Positions 2,066 to 56,124 of a DNA stretch of 64,000 nucleotides are shown here, in pieces. How positions within the stretch are numbered: position 1 is the first letter of the stretch; each line of letters opens with the position of its first letter. The notes under the pieces were generated by a model. The model had not been told where the DNA came from. It made no database searches and saw only the letters and a list, made by a program, of their open reading frames with translations. The stretch is from Escherichia phage AV116. The stretch lies in the sequence record OR352946.1; one strand, 5' to 3'. A program made the translations under genes and the position numbers.

Positions 2066-2391
2066 TTAAACCATTCCTTAATACGTTGCCAAATAGATTT
2101 TTGTGCTTGTTTATTTACACCAATCGAACGAATAATCGGTTGTGACTGCTGATATTCTTTATAATCTTCTTTATAGATTTCGTAAGCGGCATCAACAAAT
2201 GAACTGATCGCTGCCATGTAGTTTTTACGAAGGCCAAATGGAGCGTCATTATTTTCACGAATAACCGTATATTGGCCTGCTTTAATCTTTACAATTGTCC
2301 CTAAATAAGCCCCGTGGTACCAAATATCCCATCCTTCCTGAGTAGGTTCTGCACATTTACGAAGTTCGTTAATAATATTCAGCTTATTCAT
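2062..2391 (-). CDS. hypothetical early protein
   Basis: 109-aa ORF; ATGA overlap with upstream gene. Confidence 0.5.
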
Positions 2392-2401
2392 TATGTATTC
2401 C

Positions 2402-3034
2402 TCACAGTACGTTAGTTACAAGGGTAATGATTTCTTTGGACACATTAGGGAAGTCAATGTAAGTATATTTACCACCGATCTTAATCTTAACATCATTTTC
2501 AAGAGAAGTAAACAGCTTTGATTCAGTTTCTGACATGTTGTATGCAAAGATTCTAAGAGAACCATCTCGACGAATTTCGATCTGACGAATACCTAGAACT
2601 CGTTTTGCAAATCGAACTTCCAAGTTACTACGGTTTTCACCGATTTCTTTAACTTCAACTTTATCTTTAATATTTTCAAAAACAAAGTTTGCTAGTTCAT
2701 GCATTTCAGGAGTAACTCCACGTGCTTTTCTGGTGTTACGTTTCTGAAGAAGTTCTGGAGCATTTTCTTGAGCAAATAGGTCTGCAGCTTTTTGGATAAT
2801 ATCCATTGCTTCGCCTGTTGCTATAAGTCCATCACCAGATTTTTCGACTAAACCTTTCTTAATCAATACACCAATGTTAGAGTTAACAACCGATGCATTG
2901 TATTCTGCTTCCAGAGCTTCACGGACATTGGCAGCAGTGGTGAAGTTGTTCTTAATGATATAAACCATTATTGCAGCAGTTTTTTCATTCAGAGCGTTTT
3001 CAGAAGCTTTGATGATGTAAGTAACTTTAGACAT
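2402..3034 (-). CDS. motA: middle-transcription activator MotA
   Basis: 210 aa; MSKVTYIIKAS...NSNIGVLIKKGLVEKSGDGLI... matches T4 MotA pattern and length; adjacent to gene 52. Confidence 0.8.
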   Translation of the reverse strand: MSKVTYIIKASENALNEKTAAIMVYIIKNNFTTAANVREALEAEYNASVVNSNIGVLIKKGLVEKSGDGLIATGEAMDIIQKAADLFAQENAPELLQKRNTRKARGVTPEMHELANFVFENIKDKVEVKEIGENRSNLEVRFAKRVLGIRQIEIRRDGSLRIFAYNMSETESKLFTSLENDVKIKIGGKYTYIDFPNVSKEIITLVTNVL

Positions 3035-3073
3035 TTTATTTCTCCAATTTGGTTGTTTTGTTTTGATAGGTCT

Positions 3074-3102
3074 ATAATATCATGTTTGAAGCATATGTAA
3101 AC
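3074..3102 (-). promoter_or_regulatory. early sigma70-type promoter (GTTTAC-N17-TATTAT) upstream of motA
   Basis: Minus strand reads GTTTACatatgcttcaaacatgaTATTATagacctatca; leader carries GGAGAA RBS before motA ATG. Confidence 0.55.
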
Positions 3103-3123
3103 TGTTTTGTGAGAAAAATGCAC

Positions 3124-3144
3124 AAAAGGGAGCCGAAGCTCCCT
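3124..3144 (-). terminator. rho-independent terminator (GC-rich hairpin with UUCG loop then T-run) downstream of gene 52
   Basis: Plus aaaagggagcCGAAgctccct; on minus the hairpin is followed by TTTT. Confidence 0.5.
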
Positions 3145-3219
3145 AATCATGTTTGTCCAACCAATACAGCCAAATCACTAGTGCAGCTATTGCGCCGAGA
3201 AATCCTAAGGCTATGGCAC

Positions 3220-4545
3220 TCAAAGTGCCTCCAAGTCTTTAGTGTACTCTGTCACAACATCAGTAGACTTCCAATACTCATTTTCTTCTTTCTTAGCTTT
3301 AGCTTCTTCTGCTAGTTTACGTGCTTCATCGGAAGTGATATGGAAGATGTTAAGACCTACCAGTTTATCGACATGTTCTTTATACATTTCGATTTGTGCG
3401 AGCTCTTCAGTCAAAGCTTTACGAGTCTTGCCCTGAATCACAATTTCGCCGTTGATAACTTTTTTGATGAAGTGTGCCTTAGCAAAAGCCAGTTTAAATG
3501 CTTTTTCAGATTCAAGGATTTTGTTGTCAATACGTTTCTGAACGTAAGTCTTACGGACTTCAACAAAATCTTTGATTAAGTCCACTACGTTATCGTAGAC
3601 AGCTAATTTACCCTTTTCATTAATCACTGTGATGTTTTGTGAACGACGTTCGATGAGACTAAAATCTTTCATGATTTTTTCATGACGTAGCTCTTCATCA
3701 TCAGGAAGCGAGTACTCTTTACGGAACTTCACCTTAAACCCAAAGCCGTGTTCACCGCAATCATCTTCCCATGAGATTAGACCTTTGTCTTCCAACGGGT
3801 CAAGAACCTTACTCACATACGTTTCACGGTCGAATTTATATGGGATTTCAGTTATCTGCATTTGAGTGCGAGATGTGAACTTATATGTTCCGTGAATCTC
3901 ATAGCGCCCATCAACTTCATGTACTTCACCACGGAATTCCGGGAATTCAACTTTTGGCTTAGTGACATTTTTACCTTGAAGAGCTTGTAATACAGCCTTT
4001 TTGACTGATTTAAAACTATGAGGCAGAATATTTGTTGCGTAACCGGTTGCAATACCAGAGACGCCATTCAAAAGAACTGTCGGAATAATAGGAAGATAGA
4101 ATTTTGGTGGAATGTGTTCTTTATCTTCATGAGCTGGAGCATATTCAGTATCTTTATATACGTTATAGAAATTTTTACTTACACGAGCAAAAATATAACG
4201 AGATGCTGCAGCTTTTTGGACTGTTCTAGAACCAAAGTTGCCTTGGCCATCTAACAGTGGATAGTTGTTGTTCCATGTGTTAGCCATTAATGCACCTGCA
4301 TCTTGTGCAGAAGATTCACCATGGTGATAACCTAAATCTGCAACACCGCCTGCAATTGACGCAAGTTTATGAAATTTTTCTTTATTACCACGAGCCAAAT
4401 CTAACGCACGATGAACCACAAAACGTTGAACCGGCTTAAATCCATCAATCATGTTTGGGATTGCACGGTTTTCAACGGTGTACATAGCATATGCTAAGGC
4501 TTCGTTATCAATAATACTTTTTAGATTACGAGAATTCAATTGCAT
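3220..4545 (-). CDS. 52: DNA topoisomerase II medium subunit (gp52, GyrA-like)
   Basis: 441 aa; MQLNSRNLKSIIDNEALAYAMYTVENRAIPNMIDGFKPVQRFV... typical of T4 gp52. Confidence 0.9.
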   Translation of the reverse strand: MQLNSRNLKSIIDNEALAYAMYTVENRAIPNMIDGFKPVQRFVVHRALDLARGNKEKFHKLASIAGGVADLGYHHGESSAQDAGALMANTWNNNYPLLDGQGNFGSRTVQKAAASRYIFARVSKNFYNVYKDTEYAPAHEDKEHIPPKFYLPIIPTVLLNGVSGIATGYATNILPHSFKSVKKAVLQALQGKNVTKPKVEFPEFRGEVHEVDGRYEIHGTYKFTSRTQMQITEIPYKFDRETYVSKVLDPLEDKGLISWEDDCGEHGFGFKVKFRKEYSLPDDEELRHEKIMKDFSLIERRSQNITVINEKGKLAVYDNVVDLIKDFVEVRKTYVQKRIDNKILESEKAFKLAFAKAHFIKKVINGEIVIQGKTRKALTEELAQIEMYKEHVDKLVGLNIFHITSDEARKLAEEAKAKKEENEYWKSTDVVTEYTKDLEAL

Positions 4546-50989: not shown

Positions 50990-51298
50990 TCAATCTTCTA
51001 TGATATCAGAGTCGTATCCTAATGAAATCAAGGACTTTTTAAACTCTGCAATATTCTTTTGTTTCTTATCATTTAAAAATATGACAGGATAACGAATATT
51101 AAGTGAAGTGAATCCTGCACGTTTAGCAAGAGATACGATTAAAGGACGGTCATATTCAATCTTACCATTATTAGTGAGGACTTTATAAAATGTATAAGGA
51201 GCATTGAGCTCCTTTAAAAGTTTTGTAACAGTATAACATCCTGGACAACGTCCAACTTCTTCAGGGATGCCATAAATTTCAATCTTGTTGTGTTCCAC
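50990..51298 (-). CDS. nrdH: glutaredoxin-like protein NrdH
   Basis: 102 aa; CPGC redox motif. Confidence 0.7.
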   Translation of the reverse strand: MEHNKIEIYGIPEEVGRCPGCYTVTKLLKELNAPYTFYKVLTNNGKIEYDRPLIVSLAKRAGFTSLNIRYPVIFLNDKKQKNIAEFKKSLISLGYDSDIIED

Positions 51299-51300
51299 AA

Positions 51301-51513
51301 TTATTCCTTGCCAAGAACAGAATTCAGTTTATTAGTAATTTTGTCCAAACGTTCATTGAATTCGCTGGAGGATAAACCCTTTTCCGGAGAAATTAAACTA
51401 ATCACGAAAAATACACCAGTAAAAGGAATAAGAAAAATAGCTCCAACTGCCATAAACAAAAAGAACGTTACAGTTGTAAGAAAATCAGCTAAACCTTTAC
51501 GAAATTTGTACAT
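51301..51513 (-). CDS. small membrane protein
   Basis: 70 aa, one or two TM segments. Confidence 0.45.
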   Translation of the reverse strand: MYKFRKGLADFLTTVTFFLFMAVGAIFLIPFTGVFFVISLISPEKGLSSSEFNERLDKITNKLNSVLGKE

Positions 51514-51623
51514 ATTTACCCTTAATTAACTAAGAATTGATAATCATTAAACTATATTGCGAATAAAATTCTGGACCAAAACGAAAAATCATATCATTTA
51601 TAGTATCCATAATGTAATTCAAT

Positions 51624-52094
51624 TTAATCATGTTTCCACACCCCATCGGTATTTGACCAAAGTCGCTGATTATCTGATCCTCGCCACAGTTTTTTGGTCG
51701 GAAGATTTTTCTCATACTTCCCATCAATAATAACATCAACATATTTAAGCATTTCTAGTTGTTTAATATCTTCAAACTTATATCCTGTCCACAACCAAAT
51801 GCTTTTATTGGGATAAAGATTTTTTACTGTTTGAACAATGCAATGAATAACATCTCGGTTATCAGGATAGAGAGGGTCACCTCCGGTTATAGTTAATCCT
51901 TCTATATAATCATTATTCAAACATTCAATTAATTGTTCTAGTGTTTCACCAGTGAATGGAATACCATTTCTAGCATTCCATGTTGATTTATTATAACACC
52001 CTTCGCATTTATGCAAACAACCTGTAACGAAAAGAACGACCCTACAACCAGGGCCATTCACAAAATCGCAAGGATAAAATCTATCATAATTCAT
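51624..52094 (-). CDS. nrdG: anaerobic ribonucleotide reductase activating protein NrdG (radical SAM)
   Basis: 156 aa; CLHKCEGC cluster motif. Confidence 0.85.
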   Translation of the reverse strand: MNYDRFYPCDFVNGPGCRVVLFVTGCLHKCEGCYNKSTWNARNGIPFTGETLEQLIECLNNDYIEGLTITGGDPLYPDNRDVIHCIVQTVKNLYPNKSIWLWTGYKFEDIKQLEMLKYVDVIIDGKYEKNLPTKKLWRGSDNQRLWSNTDGVWKHD

Positions 52095-53908
52095 TGGTGT
52101 TTAACCCTATGCATGATTTCTTTATTTTTACCGAGATTAAATCCGCGTTCGTTCGGATTTCCCAAATAGCCGCATGTTCTTCTTATGGTGTTCATCTTTT
52201 TAGGATCAGTTTCTCCGCAAACTGAACAAACAAATCCATTTTCGGTAGGAGTCATTTCATGAGTACTTCCACATGTAAAACATTTATCTACTGGCATATT
52301 AACACCAAAATAATCTAAATGTTGTGCAGCATAATCCCAGACAGCCTCAAGTCCTTTTAAGTTATTTTTCATATCAGGAAGTTCAACATAAGAAATGTGA
52401 CCACCTGTCGCAATGAAATGATACGGCGCTTCACGAGAAATCTTTTCAAACGGAGTAGTATTTTCTTCTACTGAAACGTGGAAACTGTTAGTGTACCAGC
52501 CTTTATCGGTAACATCTTTTACACTTCCATATTTTTCTGTATCAAGTTTACAGAAGCGATAACAAAGGTTTTCAGCAGGAGTAGAATACAAACTAAAAGC
52601 AAAACCAGTTCTTTCAGTCCACTGTTTAAGATGAGCATTCATTTTAGTTAAAATTTCTTGTCCAATATCACGACCGACAAGAATATTCAATTCATGAATA
52701 CCGATGTATCCTAAAGACACTGAACTTCTACCGTTTTTAAATAGCTCAATTATATCGTCATCAGGTTTAAGACGAACCCCGAATGCACCTTCTTGGTAAA
52801 GAATAGGAGCAACAGTCGCTTTAACTCCTTTTAAGGAACTAATTCTACACATCAAAGCTTCAAAACACAGGTCCATTCGTTCATTGAATAATTCAACAAA
52901 TTTCTGTTCATTGAACTGTGTTCCAATATAAGAATCTAATGCGATACGAGGAAGATTCAGTGTTACAACGCCGAGATTATTACGACCGTCAAGAATTTCA
53001 TTTCCAGTTGAATCTTTCCATACGCTCAAGAAACTACGGCAACCCATCGGAGAAACTGGAACTGAAGAACCGGTAATAGCTTTATTATTCTTAACTGAAA
53101 TAATGTCAGGATACATTCTTTTGCTTGCACATTCTAACGCAAGTTGTTTAATATCATAGTTTGGATCATCTTTATAAAGATTAACACCTTCTTCAAAAAA
53201 CATAACAAGCTTAGGGAAAATAGGAGTTATTCCATCACGTCCAAGGCCTTTAATGCGGTTTTTAAGAATTGCCTTCTGAATCATTCGTTCAGTCCAGTCA
53301 GTTCCCGTACCAAATGTAATTGTCACAAAAGGCGTTTGTCCGTTTGAACTAAAGAGAGTGTTTACTTCATATTCATAAGCTTGGAATGCATCGTATACGT
53401 CTTTTTCTGTTTTAGATTGAGCATAATTCAGAATGTCTGGTATTTGCCATTTTTCTGCATCTTCAACATGTTTAGCGTATGTGCGTTTAACATAAGGAGA
53501 AAGAACTTTATCGACATTCGCAAATGTAGTTCCGCCATACTGGTGTGAAGCAACTTGTGCAGTAATTTGTGCCATAATTGCAGTAGCAACGCCAATAGAT
53601 TTAGGCGTTTCAATTTGAGCATTGCCTAATTTAAATCCATTCTCAAGCATTCCTTTTAAATCTACTAAACAGCAATTAGTAAAAGGCAATGATATACTAT
53701 AATCTAAATCGTGAAAATGAATTAATCCGACATTATGAGCATTTACAATATGGCTCGGAAGAATACTACAAGCGATATGTTTAGAAACAATACCGGCCAT
53801 TAAATCTCTTTTTGTTGGAAAGACACGAGAATCTTTGTTGGCATTTTCGGTATTTAATTCTTTATCTTTATTTGAAATAAAATTTAAAACATCTTTCTCT
53901 AAAGACAT
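52091..53908 (-). CDS. nrdD: anaerobic ribonucleoside-triphosphate reductase NrdD (class III), intron-less
   Basis: 605 aa; glycyl-radical motif RTCGYLG; C-terminal zinc site. Confidence 0.95.
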   Translation of the reverse strand: MSLEKDVLNFISNKDKELNTENANKDSRVFPTKRDLMAGIVSKHIACSILPSHIVNAHNVGLIHFHDLDYSISLPFTNCCLVDLKGMLENGFKLGNAQIETPKSIGVATAIMAQITAQVASHQYGGTTFANVDKVLSPYVKRTYAKHVEDAEKWQIPDILNYAQSKTEKDVYDAFQAYEYEVNTLFSSNGQTPFVTITFGTGTDWTERMIQKAILKNRIKGLGRDGITPIFPKLVMFFEEGVNLYKDDPNYDIKQLALECASKRMYPDIISVKNNKAITGSSVPVSPMGCRSFLSVWKDSTGNEILDGRNNLGVVTLNLPRIALDSYIGTQFNEQKFVELFNERMDLCFEALMCRISSLKGVKATVAPILYQEGAFGVRLKPDDDIIELFKNGRSSVSLGYIGIHELNILVGRDIGQEILTKMNAHLKQWTERTGFAFSLYSTPAENLCYRFCKLDTEKYGSVKDVTDKGWYTNSFHVSVEENTTPFEKISREAPYHFIATGGHISYVELPDMKNNLKGLEAVWDYAAQHLDYFGVNMPVDKCFTCGSTHEMTPTENGFVCSVCGETDPKKMNTIRRTCGYLGNPNERGFNLGKNKEIMHRVKHQ

Positions 53909-54720
53909 AATTCTAATTTATCCTTTTGAAATTCTTCGTCTAAATATGGGTTCCAACCCATTTTAAACCTTTTGATGAAATTATCAATTCTAAATTTCGG
54001 TAAATTTAACTCCGCAAAAATAGATGATTTACTTTTAAAATCTGGACCTAAATAATCATATAAAATTTCTGCGTATTTTAACCATAATATATAAGTACCA
54101 GATTTAATTGCGTTCGGAGTTTTCCAAGGTTTTACACCATACATCGGATTTCCACTTCCTTTATGCCTGATAGAAGATGAAATTCCAATTTTAATTTTAG
54201 CTTCCTTTGTATGCGAAAATCCACGATGCGGATTTTCTTTCCAGTATTTTTTAGCAGCTTCTGATATTTTCTTTCTGGCTAAATTAGTATGATGCTTTCC
54301 ATAAAATCCATGATTTTTGCCTTTATTACGATTTCTTTTAATCATGGTTATTGATTGCTTTTCTCTAGTTTCTTTAGAAGGAGAAATACCATATGTCGTA
54401 AATTTGCCATCAGCATATGCTAAATTAAAATACTCTTTATTCCATACATCTTTTTCTATATTCTTTTGAAATTCAGCTTCAATGCTAGTTATTTGTTCAT
54501 CTCCGACTAATTGAAAATATAATATTTCAACTTTCGGCGTTTCTTTCAATAAGGCTTTTTGAAATTCGGAAGATGACGAAGACGAATAATAAAATTTACC
54601 ATTTTTATCAATAATATTCGTTCCATCAAAAGTGCAATTGGTTTTACTTCCAATGTAATAATATGGTGGGGTTTTAGCATTAATTCTATTAATAAATGAT
54701 AGTTTATATACTACATTCAT
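53899..54720 (-). CDS. GIY-YIG homing endonuclease (free-standing)
   Basis: VVYKLSFINRINAKTPPYYYIGSKT; NPMYGVKP NUMOD-like repeat. Confidence 0.75.
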   Translation of the reverse strand: MNVVYKLSFINRINAKTPPYYYIGSKTNCTFDGTNIIDKNGKFYYSSSSSSEFQKALLKETPKVEILYFQLVGDEQITSIEAEFQKNIEKDVWNKEYFNLAYADGKFTTYGISPSKETREKQSITMIKRNRNKGKNHGFYGKHHTNLARKKISEAAKKYWKENPHRGFSHTKEAKIKIGISSSIRHKGSGNPMYGVKPWKTPNAIKSGTYILWLKYAEILYDYLGPDFKSKSSIFAELNLPKFRIDNFIKRFKMGWNPYLDEEFQKDKLELCL

Positions 54721-55190
54721 TTTAAACTCTTTCTAAGCTGCTTTTTGAATGAAGCTATTAATTGTGTTTTAGTATCAGATTCAGTATATTCAAATCCTCT
54801 TTGAAGCATCTCAGCCATCATTTCCTCTTTACCTAGTCTTGAGAACTCTTTAGTTTTGTCTGGAACAAAATTAGGATGGATATTATTATCAGAATAATCT
54901 TGTTTCAAATAAGCAAGAAGAGCTTCAAGCCATTCTAAGTAGTCAACGTTTTGACCTTTCAAACCGGAACGGTTGAACTTATGCTTCATTTGACCTTCTG
55001 CTGCGTTGCACAGATTACAGAGTAATCCACGAACTCTACCGGCTTTTGGCCCGTTTAATTCATGGTCGTGGTCAAGATGGTTACCTTGAACATCAGGGTC
55101 TAATTCACGGTGGCAAATAGGACACTTACCGTTCTGTGCATCATAAAATTTTTGTTTTTCTTCTTTATATTTTGCGCCTGATAATAACAT
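54717..55190 (-). CDS. 49: endonuclease VII (gp49, Holliday junction resolvase)
   Basis: 157 aa; CPICHRELD...HLDHDHELNGPKAGRVRGLLCNLCN matches T4 endo VII. Confidence 0.9.
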   Translation of the reverse strand: MLLSGAKYKEEKQKFYDAQNGKCPICHRELDPDVQGNHLDHDHELNGPKAGRVRGLLCNLCNAAEGQMKHKFNRSGLKGQNVDYLEWLEALLAYLKQDYSDNNIHPNFVPDKTKEFSRLGKEEMMAEMLQRGFEYTESDTKTQLIASFKKQLRKSLK

Positions 55191-55229
55191 GATAAACCCT
55201 TACCTTAAATAGATAAGGGTATTTATAAT

Positions 55230-55427
55230 TTAGTAAACGTTATAAAAGTTACGATGAGAACGTTTAGCTTTGCGAAGCTGACGTTTAGTTGGTCGAACCG
55301 TAAATGGTCGTCCGGAGAAAAAATTCGGATCGGTTTTAATAAGCAAATACCAATCATGCTTGCCATTTTTTAATAAACGGTACAATAATTTAACTTGCAT
55401 AATAATCTCTTCCCATTTCCAAATCAA
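55230..55427 (-). CDS. hypothetical basic protein
   Basis: 65-aa ORF. Confidence 0.35.
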   Translation of the reverse strand: MIWKWEEIIMQVKLLYRLLKNGKHDWYLLIKTDPNFFSGRPFTVRPTKRQLRKAKRSHRNFYNVY

Positions 55428-55528
55428 TCATATCGTTTACTGTAGGTTCATCATAACACGTTTCTTCGTCGTTGTAAACTGTTTCGACGTCTGGCTCGAC
55501 AGTTTCCCATCGAGCCGAATACCATGGT

Positions 55529-55864
55529 TTAACCCCGGAGTTTATTGAGCTCTTCATAATCAATCCAGGATTCTAGCCCTGACGGCAGGTCACATTCAAT
55601 GTTCCACAGAAGCTCTTCAATGGCTTGCAGGCGATTATATTCTTCAACGGTAATGGTAACCATTGGTTTTGGCTTTTTAACCATCATGTCATTCATCAGA
55701 ACGTACAGGTCTTCACAAACAGCCGGGTCGTCCCATGTCCATACTTCAGCATCTCGAACCAATGAAGTCGGAATCGAATTTAAAACTTCAAGCTTAGTAG
55801 GAGCATCAGGGCCGAGAAGAGTTGCTACAAATTTATATGCTTTGGCGAAATCAATATCGTTCAT
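55529..55864 (-). CDS. hypothetical acidic protein
   Basis: 111-aa ORF. Confidence 0.45.
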   Translation of the reverse strand: MNDIDFAKAYKFVATLLGPDAPTKLEVLNSIPTSLVRDAEVWTWDDPAVCEDLYVLMNDMMVKKPKPMVTITVEEYNRLQAIEELLWNIECDLPSGLESWIDYEELNKLRG

Positions 55865-56124
55865 TTAAAATATTCTCGCAGTTGGTCAAATCCACCAATG
55901 TGACTTCCGTCAGGAGCAAACACTTGAGGCATAGTCAATCCAACTTGTGATTCGCGTCCAAGCTTAACAAGAAGCTCAGTAATTTTCTCATCGTCGAACA
56001 CACCTTTTTCTGGCATAACATTAATGAATTCGAACGGCTGTTTCTTAACAGTCAGCAATCGTTTCGCATTATCACAATAAATGCATTTATGAATAGTAGA
56101 GTCATACCCGTACACTTTAAACAT
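55861..56124 (-). CDS. nrdC: thioredoxin/glutaredoxin NrdC
   Basis: 87 aa from ATG 56124; CIYC active site. Confidence 0.75.
   Translation of the reverse strand: MFKVYGYDSTIHKCIYCDNAKRLLTVKKQPFEFINVMPEKGVFDDEKITELLVKLGRESQVGLTMPQVFAPDGSHIGGFDQLREYFK

Follow-up and report, generated by a model that had tools for sequence, protein, structure and literature searches.

A SegG-like GIY-YIG endonuclease gene between gene 49 and nrdD of Escherichia phage AV116: a probable case of intron-less homing

Between gene 49 and nrdD of Escherichia phage AV116 (sequence record OR352946.1) lies a 273-codon open reading frame (ORF) for a putative GIY-YIG endonuclease, and this locus raises the question of whether, and by which route, such a gene moves between phages. 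A preliminary description of the 64,000-nt stretch analysed here (hereinafter referred to as the window) had proposed either intron-less homing or collaborative homing targeting nrdD of competitor phages. The first half of that proposal was strongly supported by comparative evidence: the gene was patchily distributed at one slot, near-identical across genera, linked to a recoded block of nrdD, under purifying selection, and accompanied by decay derivatives. The second half was not borne out. We consider it probable that a free-standing, SegG-like GIY-YIG endonuclease spreads by intron-less homing at the 5' end of nrdD. The two parts of the putative mobile unit are as follows.

53899-54720, minus strand: free-standing SegG-like GIY-YIG homing endonuclease gene, 273 aa (ORF list, phrog_7504 and SegG match)
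53684-53908, minus strand: endonuclease-linked recoded 5' block of nrdD, nt 1-225, codons 1-75 (fixed-difference alignment)

Distribution of the endonuclease gene and its linkage to nrdD

DNA of the endonuclease gene was found in 49 of 50,697 phage records, always at the slot between gene 49 and nrdD (49|nrdD). Among more than 700 records of T-even-type phages, 48, from two genera, had an intact gene at precisely this slot. The empty T4-type junction was present in at least 676 records, and an artificial empty junction made from the window's own flanks matched 837. The carriers included AV109, phage 55, JK42 and ST0 in Mosigvirus, and fPS-90, MLP2, TadeuszReichstein, G8 and fPS-2 in Tequatrovirus. 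Scans of IMG/VR and JGI metagenomes added just three further near-identical copies. No description of an endonuclease gene between gene 49 and nrdD was found in the literature, and the slot is absent from the list of T4 endonucleases (PMC2988022, Table 1).

Eleven copies of the gene were 96.7-100% identical at the nucleotide level, all 11 ORFs were intact, and the ratio of non-synonymous to synonymous polymorphism (pN/pS) was 0.18; the gene appears to be under purifying selection, with its function retained. Between the same Mosigvirus and Tequatrovirus phages, gene 49 was 65-83% identical over its first 360 nt (sliding identity). The G+C content of the endonuclease gene was 0.25-0.30, against 0.35-0.38 in the flanks. 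The gene lies outside any intron or intein, in the same orientation as its neighbours, and is in this sense free-standing. A presence/absence polymorphism at one exact site (49 against at least 676 records) was thus accompanied by transfer across genera.

To delimit the mobile unit, gene 49, spliced nrdD and nrdG were aligned without gaps over 2,755 nt for nine carriers and nine non-carriers from both genera. This comparison revealed 62 fixed differences, all at nrdD nt 4-222 and most densely clustered at nt 132-184; no fixed difference was found in gene 49, in the remainder of nrdD or in nrdG. Under a uniform spread, the chance of such clustering was 1e-68. Columns in which the two groups had no base in common numbered 72, all of them within nrdD nt 4-225 (window positions 53684-53905), and the last was nt 225. 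The flanking gene that is the presumed target thus differs consistently between phages with and without the endonuclease gene. At the codon level, 52 of the 75 codons of the block differed between carriers and non-carriers, 29 of them non-synonymously; for the same 75 codons, RB69 and T4 differed in 10. Between carriers of the two genera, the block was 95-100% identical. The block accompanied the endonuclease gene in 48 of 48 intact cases, and its DNA was found in 49 records in all, the remaining one being the deletion derivative OLB35 described below. A search for a donor of the block detected no other phage NrdD N-terminus above 65% amino acid identity.

The left boundary was exact and coincided with the stop codon of gene 49 and the ATG that follows: MLP2 matched T4 gene 49 at 99.7% up to the ATG, and the endonuclease ATG stands where non-carriers have the ATG of nrdD, the preceding 3' end of gene 49 being identical. 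The last ~110 nt of gene 49, conserved across genera and free of carrier-specific differences, would form a left homology arm, and the conserved part of nrdD from nt ~226 onwards a right arm. Since all fixed differences fell within nrdD nt 4-225, the mobile unit would comprise the endonuclease gene together with the recoded nrdD 5' block, about 1.04 kb in total (53684-54720). The block presumably confers self-immunity, as a cleavage-resistant allele of the target.

Several variants of this arrangement were found. In the Mosigvirus OLB35 (L051, MH992122; a record flagged UNVERIFIED), the endonuclease gene was lost by an in-frame deletion (positions 2800-2830). Its NrdD opens with MNVVYKL, identical to endonuclease residues 1-7, fused in frame to a carrier-type block; this arrangement reads as the deletion footprint of the endonuclease gene, and the deletion puts the original translation start back before nrdD. 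In the Mosigvirus FL18 (L066, PP400780; positions 2501-3992), endonuclease codons 1 to ~205 were joined to the final ~20 NrdD codons. The whole of nrdD was lost, leaving a T-even-type phage without NrdD, and the next genes were a GIY-YIG endonuclease gene of the nrdD|nrdG slot and nrdG. Because such deletion derivatives exist, the endonuclease gene is dispensable.

A third variant was a metagenomic contig (Logan SRR27536177_201122, hereinafter L060; positions 2188-3400), which carried an older, frameshifted endonuclease homologue (56-66% identity) beside a gp49 of 64% identity. The homologue showed the same stop/start overlap with nrdD as in the window. The order of genes was resident nrdD codons 1-55 (truncated), the homologue, and a complete nrdD, amounting to a partial duplication of the nrdD 5' end. 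The start of the downstream nrdD was 67% identical to the window's block, compared with 58-60% to the non-carrier type. The breakpoint was located at nrdD nt 165, within the densest cluster of fixed differences. This arrangement is suggestive of a break near nt 165 for which the repair template came from a donor with a gene 49 so divergent that it could not act as left arm.

In two T4-like phages, UPWr_E4 (PP418987) and BYEP02 (OR757454), the 49/nrdD junction matched in two pieces annotated 'endonuclease VII (x2)', which suggests a duplication or insertion at this junction.

Protein family, gene layout and expression

The window phage belongs to Mosigvirus (RB69-like) and is not a T4-species phage; it was 99.5% identical to phage AV109 over 3.6 kb, and its gp49 was 99% identical to that of RB69. 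The product of the 273-codon ORF was assigned to phrog_7504 'homing endonuclease' in PHROGs (1.5e-33), and its N-terminal 126 residues were 40% identical to the N-terminal domain of T4 SegG (E 4e-27). The following domains were recognised in it.

54406-54720, minus strand: GIY-YIG catalytic domain, aa 1-105 (motifs VVY at 3-5 and YIG at 22-24, E81, N99)
54262-54333, minus strand: NUMOD3 DNA-binding motif, aa 130-153 (Pfam PF07460, E 6e-7)

In an alignment of 24 homologues, E81 and N99 were invariant, and Y5, Y22 and G24 were nearly invariant (V3-V4-Y5 and Y22-I23-G24); Y5, Y22-I-G24, E81 and N99 were aligned with the same residues in T4 SegG. The GIY-YIG alpha/beta fold was also assigned to this domain. 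The NUMOD3 motif was followed by more NUMOD3-like repeats and then by a helical C-terminal domain (aa ~197-273), and the family profile matched the DNA-binding domain of I-TevI (1I3J, E 3e-5), so that the C-terminal region has the modular DNA-binding make-up of homing endonucleases. The C-terminal motif GWNPYLDxEFQK was kept in homologues P0002 and P0004. An endonuclease at the SegG position, between genes 59 and 32, in Logan contig SRR25010926_599 (L064, 3501-4139) shared both the N-terminal domain and a C-terminal motif, KLGWNPxLDxEFQK; the C-terminal module is consequently not specific to nrdD-targeting enzymes. The GIY-YIG label given in the preliminary description is upheld through the SegG N-terminal domain and the conserved motif residues, not through Pfam. 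On TIGR01453, the NCBIfam model for group I intron endonucleases, the protein scored 21.8 bits against a cut-off of 56, and a phmmer search against PDB sequences returned nothing useful. Origin from an escaped intron ORF was rejected, as no relationship to I-TevII emerged from BLASTP.

SegG is an experimentally active free-standing GIY-YIG endonuclease that targets gene 32 (PMC2988022, Table 1). By sequence comparison, the 273-aa protein is best described as a divergent SegG-like GIY-YIG homing endonuclease, and not as a SegG orthologue. GenBank records name the gene 'homing endonuclease', 'hypothetical protein' or 'SegG', the last being wrong as a statement of orthology. The label 'SegG' appears in the JK42 record (MK962756), where only the N-terminal domain (40%) is common and the locus is different; because the slot and the middle and C-terminal parts differ from T4 SegG, it is a family-level name.

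On the minus strand of the window, gp49, the 273-codon ORF, nrdD and nrdG follow one another in this order and are tightly packed. The neighbouring genes are listed below.

54717-55190, minus strand: gene 49, encoding gp49 (endonuclease VII), 157 aa (ORF list and Pfam)
52091-53908, minus strand: nrdD, intron-less, class III ribonucleotide reductase, 605 aa, a single ORF (Pfam, Rfam)
51624-52094, minus strand: nrdG, radical-SAM activase, 156 aa (ORF list and Pfam)

The coordinates confirm that the endonuclease gene is wedged between gene 49 and nrdD with overlaps of 4 to 10 nt, as first described: it overlaps gene 49 by 4 nt (ATGA, 54717-54720) and nrdD by 10 nt (ATGTCTTTAG, 53899-53908), and nrdD in turn overlaps nrdG by 4 nt. 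The description of NrdD as one continuous 605-codon ORF likewise held, as the frame at 52091-53908 was uninterrupted and an Rfam scan of 51000-56000 detected no group I intron at E<=1. NrdD was covered over its full length by the Pfam NRDD model (PF13597, 1-562/562, E 5e-170) and matched the Gly_radical model PF01228; it possessed the C-terminal glycyl-radical motif RRTCGYLG, and nrdG, the product of which matched radical SAM models in Pfam, came directly after it. These are the features of a class III (anaerobic) reductase. In T4, nrdD is directly overlapped by gene 49 and separated from nrdG by mobC; as had been noted, it is interrupted by a group I intron, 1,033 nt long and carrying I-TevII. 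In one public record, Killian (OQ446694), nrdD is labelled 'endolysin'.

No promoter was recognised inside the endonuclease gene, where a sigma-70 scan did not exceed shuffled sequences and neither a late nor a MotA box was present. As none belongs to the endonuclease gene itself, the nearest promoter-like element is the late box of gene 49, one of only two in the 64-kb window.

55220-55227, minus strand: T4-type late promoter box TATAAATA, upstream of gene 49 (motif scan)

The endonuclease gene is probably read from gene 49 transcripts; several seg and mob genes of T4 are promoter-less cassettes likewise (PMC2988022). For translation it appears to use the initiation region and ATG that serve nrdD in endonuclease-free phages. 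As the nrdD start now lies 10 nt inside the 3' end of the endonuclease gene and the sole upstream AAGGA is distant, translational coupling of nrdD to the endonuclease gene is possible. RNA structure at the start codons was not significant (z -1.1 for the endonuclease gene and +0.8 for nrdD), and thus gave no sign of hairpin-based translational control.

Homing model, target and rival explanations

Under the intron-less homing model, the setting would be a cell co-infected with a T-even-type phage, Mosigvirus or Tequatrovirus, that lacks the gene. The enzyme would bind DNA through its NUMOD3 and C-terminal modules and cut both strands of the competitor's nrdD within its first ~225 bp, most likely around nt 130-190. 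The recombination machinery of the phage would then mend the break with the carrier genome as template, using the conserved gene 49 3' end and nrdD beyond nt ~225 as homology arms, and the endonuclease gene and the recoded block would be copied in jointly. The carrier itself would be spared by the 62 fixed differences in its own block. We infer from the comparative data both cleavage within nt 1-225 of non-carrier nrdD, most likely at ~130-190, and a biased inheritance in which repair copies gene and block.

The alternative raised at the outset was that the enzyme takes part in collaborative (trans) homing, cutting at or near the intron site and so mobilising the nrdD group I intron of partner phages. 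The site concerned is empty in the window.

53330-53409, minus strand: empty intron insertion site, nrdD nt ~540 (~window position 53369), with 40 nt on each side (alignment)

Such a role has some appeal, as T4 nrdD holds a mobile intron ~540 nt from the gene start and some carriers (G8, fPS-2, Manna and F26) have an intron as well; moreover, long co-conversion tracts might carry the intron along, a process known from MobE and the nrdB intron (PMC2790892). The site itself argues the other way. Over the insertion site and 40 nt on either side, carriers and non-carriers had the same sequence, and the window differed from RB69 at 1 of 80 positions; because the site is the same in both groups, cleavage there would hit the carrier's genome as well and be suicidal. 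No fixed difference was found beyond nrdD nt 225, so this indirect test pointed away from the insertion site as target. The partner expected for collaborative homing, an adjacent intron without its own endonuclease, was also missing: the window and most carriers are intron-less, and the introns of G8 and fPS-2 encode an intact I-TevII (99-100% identity). Further, the three endonuclease slots (49|nrdD, the intron and nrdD|nrdG) were filled in all combinations. We regard collaborative homing as highly improbable, and consider it likely that the target lies within the first ~225 bp of nrdD rather than at the intron site (nt ~540). In phages that have both elements, the intron, ~315 nt past the end of the block, may be carried along passively. 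The window's insertion site is probably still a homing site for I-TevII. Compared with all 17 intron-less alleles, the intron-containing ones of T4 and G8 had six substitutions in common, all within 20 nt of the start of nrdD exon 2. This stretch is presumably where I-TevII cuts, and its equivalent in the window (~53350-53369) retained the intron-less, presumably sensitive, sequence.

Two further explanations concern the activity of the enzyme and the place of its target. The gene might be an inactive or domesticated passenger whose patchiness across genera arose from ordinary homologous recombination among co-infecting T-even phages; the nrdD region is in general mosaic between the genera, the deletion derivatives show that phages can do without the gene, and neither a match to the Pfam GIY-YIG model nor a clear canonical arginine was seen. 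We hold this unlikely in view of the low pN/pS and the uniformly intact ORFs, the conservation of the GIY-YIG core residues as in active SegG, the copies 97-100% identical across genera in which gene 49 differs by 17-35%, and the confinement of fixed differences to one 225-nt block beside the gene, as a nuclease with a resistant allele predicts. Alternatively, the enzyme could be active on a target outside the block (deeper in nrdD, in nrdG, or hundreds of bp off), with the block as a hitch-hiking remnant of the donor. Free-standing endonucleases of T4 can cut at distances of hundreds to thousands of bp from their own genes (PMC2988022), and the failure to find a donor sequence closer than 65% is compatible with an unsampled donor; but at the target, carrier and victim have to differ, no consistent difference lay outside nrdD nt 4-225 in the nine-against-nine comparison, and the L060 breakpoint falls inside the block. 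These points make a distant target quite unlikely.

Several observations weigh against intron-less homing by a GIY-YIG enzyme acting within the block. The Pfam GIY-YIG model PF01541 did not match the protein at E<=0.01, NUMOD3 being its only Pfam match; local HHalign to a small PF01541-containing profile reached a probability of 17%, YIG, E and N being in register; and a Foldseek search returned no match. The SegG-like group has no conserved arginine after YIGSK, R12 and K26 being conserved instead; the canonical arginine shortly after YIG is R27 in I-TevI. The arginine pattern after YIG in active SegG is the same as in the 273-aa protein. As regards the target, the divergence of the block would by itself suppress internal crossovers, and therefore its linkage to the gene is no proof that the cut lies within it. 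L060 is one metagenomic contig, the breakpoint of which could reflect unrelated illegitimate recombination. More generally, the case for this protein is built on sequence comparison, with which spread by ordinary homologous recombination without nuclease drive would also be compatible. Intron-less homing at the nrdD 5' end nevertheless remains the reading that we favour.

A bolder reading takes the endonuclease gene together with the recoded nrdD codons 1-75 as an old, co-evolving unit of cutter and resistant target that crosses genera, owns the translation start of nrdD and cuts near codons 45-60, with mis-repair remodelling or deleting nrdD as in L060 and FL18. We put this forward tentatively, as doubtful in its full extent. 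If it were true, homing endonucleases would directly drive protein-coding recoding and gene loss in an auxiliary metabolic gene.

Comparison with known homing systems

The closest likeness to the window element is offered by two free-standing endonuclease genes of T4. With SegG, which lies between genes 59 and 32, it shares the catalytic N-terminal domain and the same motif set, as well as the state of a promoter-less cassette on the transcript of the upstream gene and a co-inherited, divergent flanking segment (for the biology of SegG, see PMC2988022). It differs from SegG in slot (49|nrdD versus 59|32), in presumed target (nrdD versus gene 32) and in length (273 versus 210 aa), and the middle and C-terminal DNA-binding parts are unrelated beyond residue ~126. 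SegF is likewise a free-standing GIY-YIG gene between two conserved genes, has its target in a neighbouring gene of phages that lack it, and brings about co-conversion of flanking markers (localised marker exclusion); its intron-less homing was reported by Belle, Landthaler & Shub (2002), as summarised in PMC2988022. For SegF, cleavage and biased inheritance have been demonstrated, whereas for the window element they are deduced from comparative genomics. By analogy, the window element would work like SegF and SegG, through intron-less homing with localised marker exclusion.

I-TevII concerns the same gene (nrdD), the same superfamily and the same phage group, and coexists with a window-type element in G8 and fPS-2. 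It differs in being intron-encoded and in acting at nrdD nt ~540, whereas the window gene is free-standing and leaves its signature at nt 4-225; no similarity between the two proteins was detectable. F-CphI with psbA (collaborative homing) and MobE with the nrdB intron (trans homing) resemble the present case in that a free-standing endonuclease gene stands beside a gene that bears an intron in some relatives. The window element is without the defining features of those systems, namely an endonuclease-less intron and a carrier-specific difference at the insertion site.

MobC, SegH and other occupants of the nrdD|nrdG slot are also free-standing endonuclease genes flanking the anaerobic reductase genes, but lie on the other side of nrdD, and none was similar to the 273-aa protein at E<=1e-5. 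Besides MobC, which is of the HNH type, they comprised an HNH-like protein of 279 aa (TadeuszReichstein) and a GIY-YIG protein of 276 aa (FL18 and fPS-2). SegH is said, going by the title of a 2005 study by Sandegren and colleagues, to replace mobC there. The TadeuszReichstein gene (L004, 4608-5447) opens with nrdG codons 1-13 (MNYDRFYPCDFVN) and thus appears to have captured the translation start of nrdG, as the window element did with that of nrdD. In T4 nrdG, nt ~50-290 (alignment columns 2341-2580) were 48-80% identical to mobC-less phages, compared with 97-100% elsewhere; this ~250-nt divergent 5' block beside mobC is the same signature of an endonuclease with a recoded neighbour. The target of MobC was listed as unknown in a 2010 review.

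The window element is unnamed, uncharacterised and absent from the T4 catalogue. It belongs to a well-known class and is not a new kind of system, and the current picture of how such elements work is unchanged by it. It fills a third endonuclease slot around nrdD, its natural gain-and-loss intermediates are available, and the comparative data predict its target precisely, as nrdD nt ~130-190 of RB69 or T4, together with a resistant allele. Through marker exclusion, free-standing homing endonucleases influence which genes survive co-infection of related phages, which is relevant to the design of phage cocktails and to the understanding of mosaic T-even genomes.

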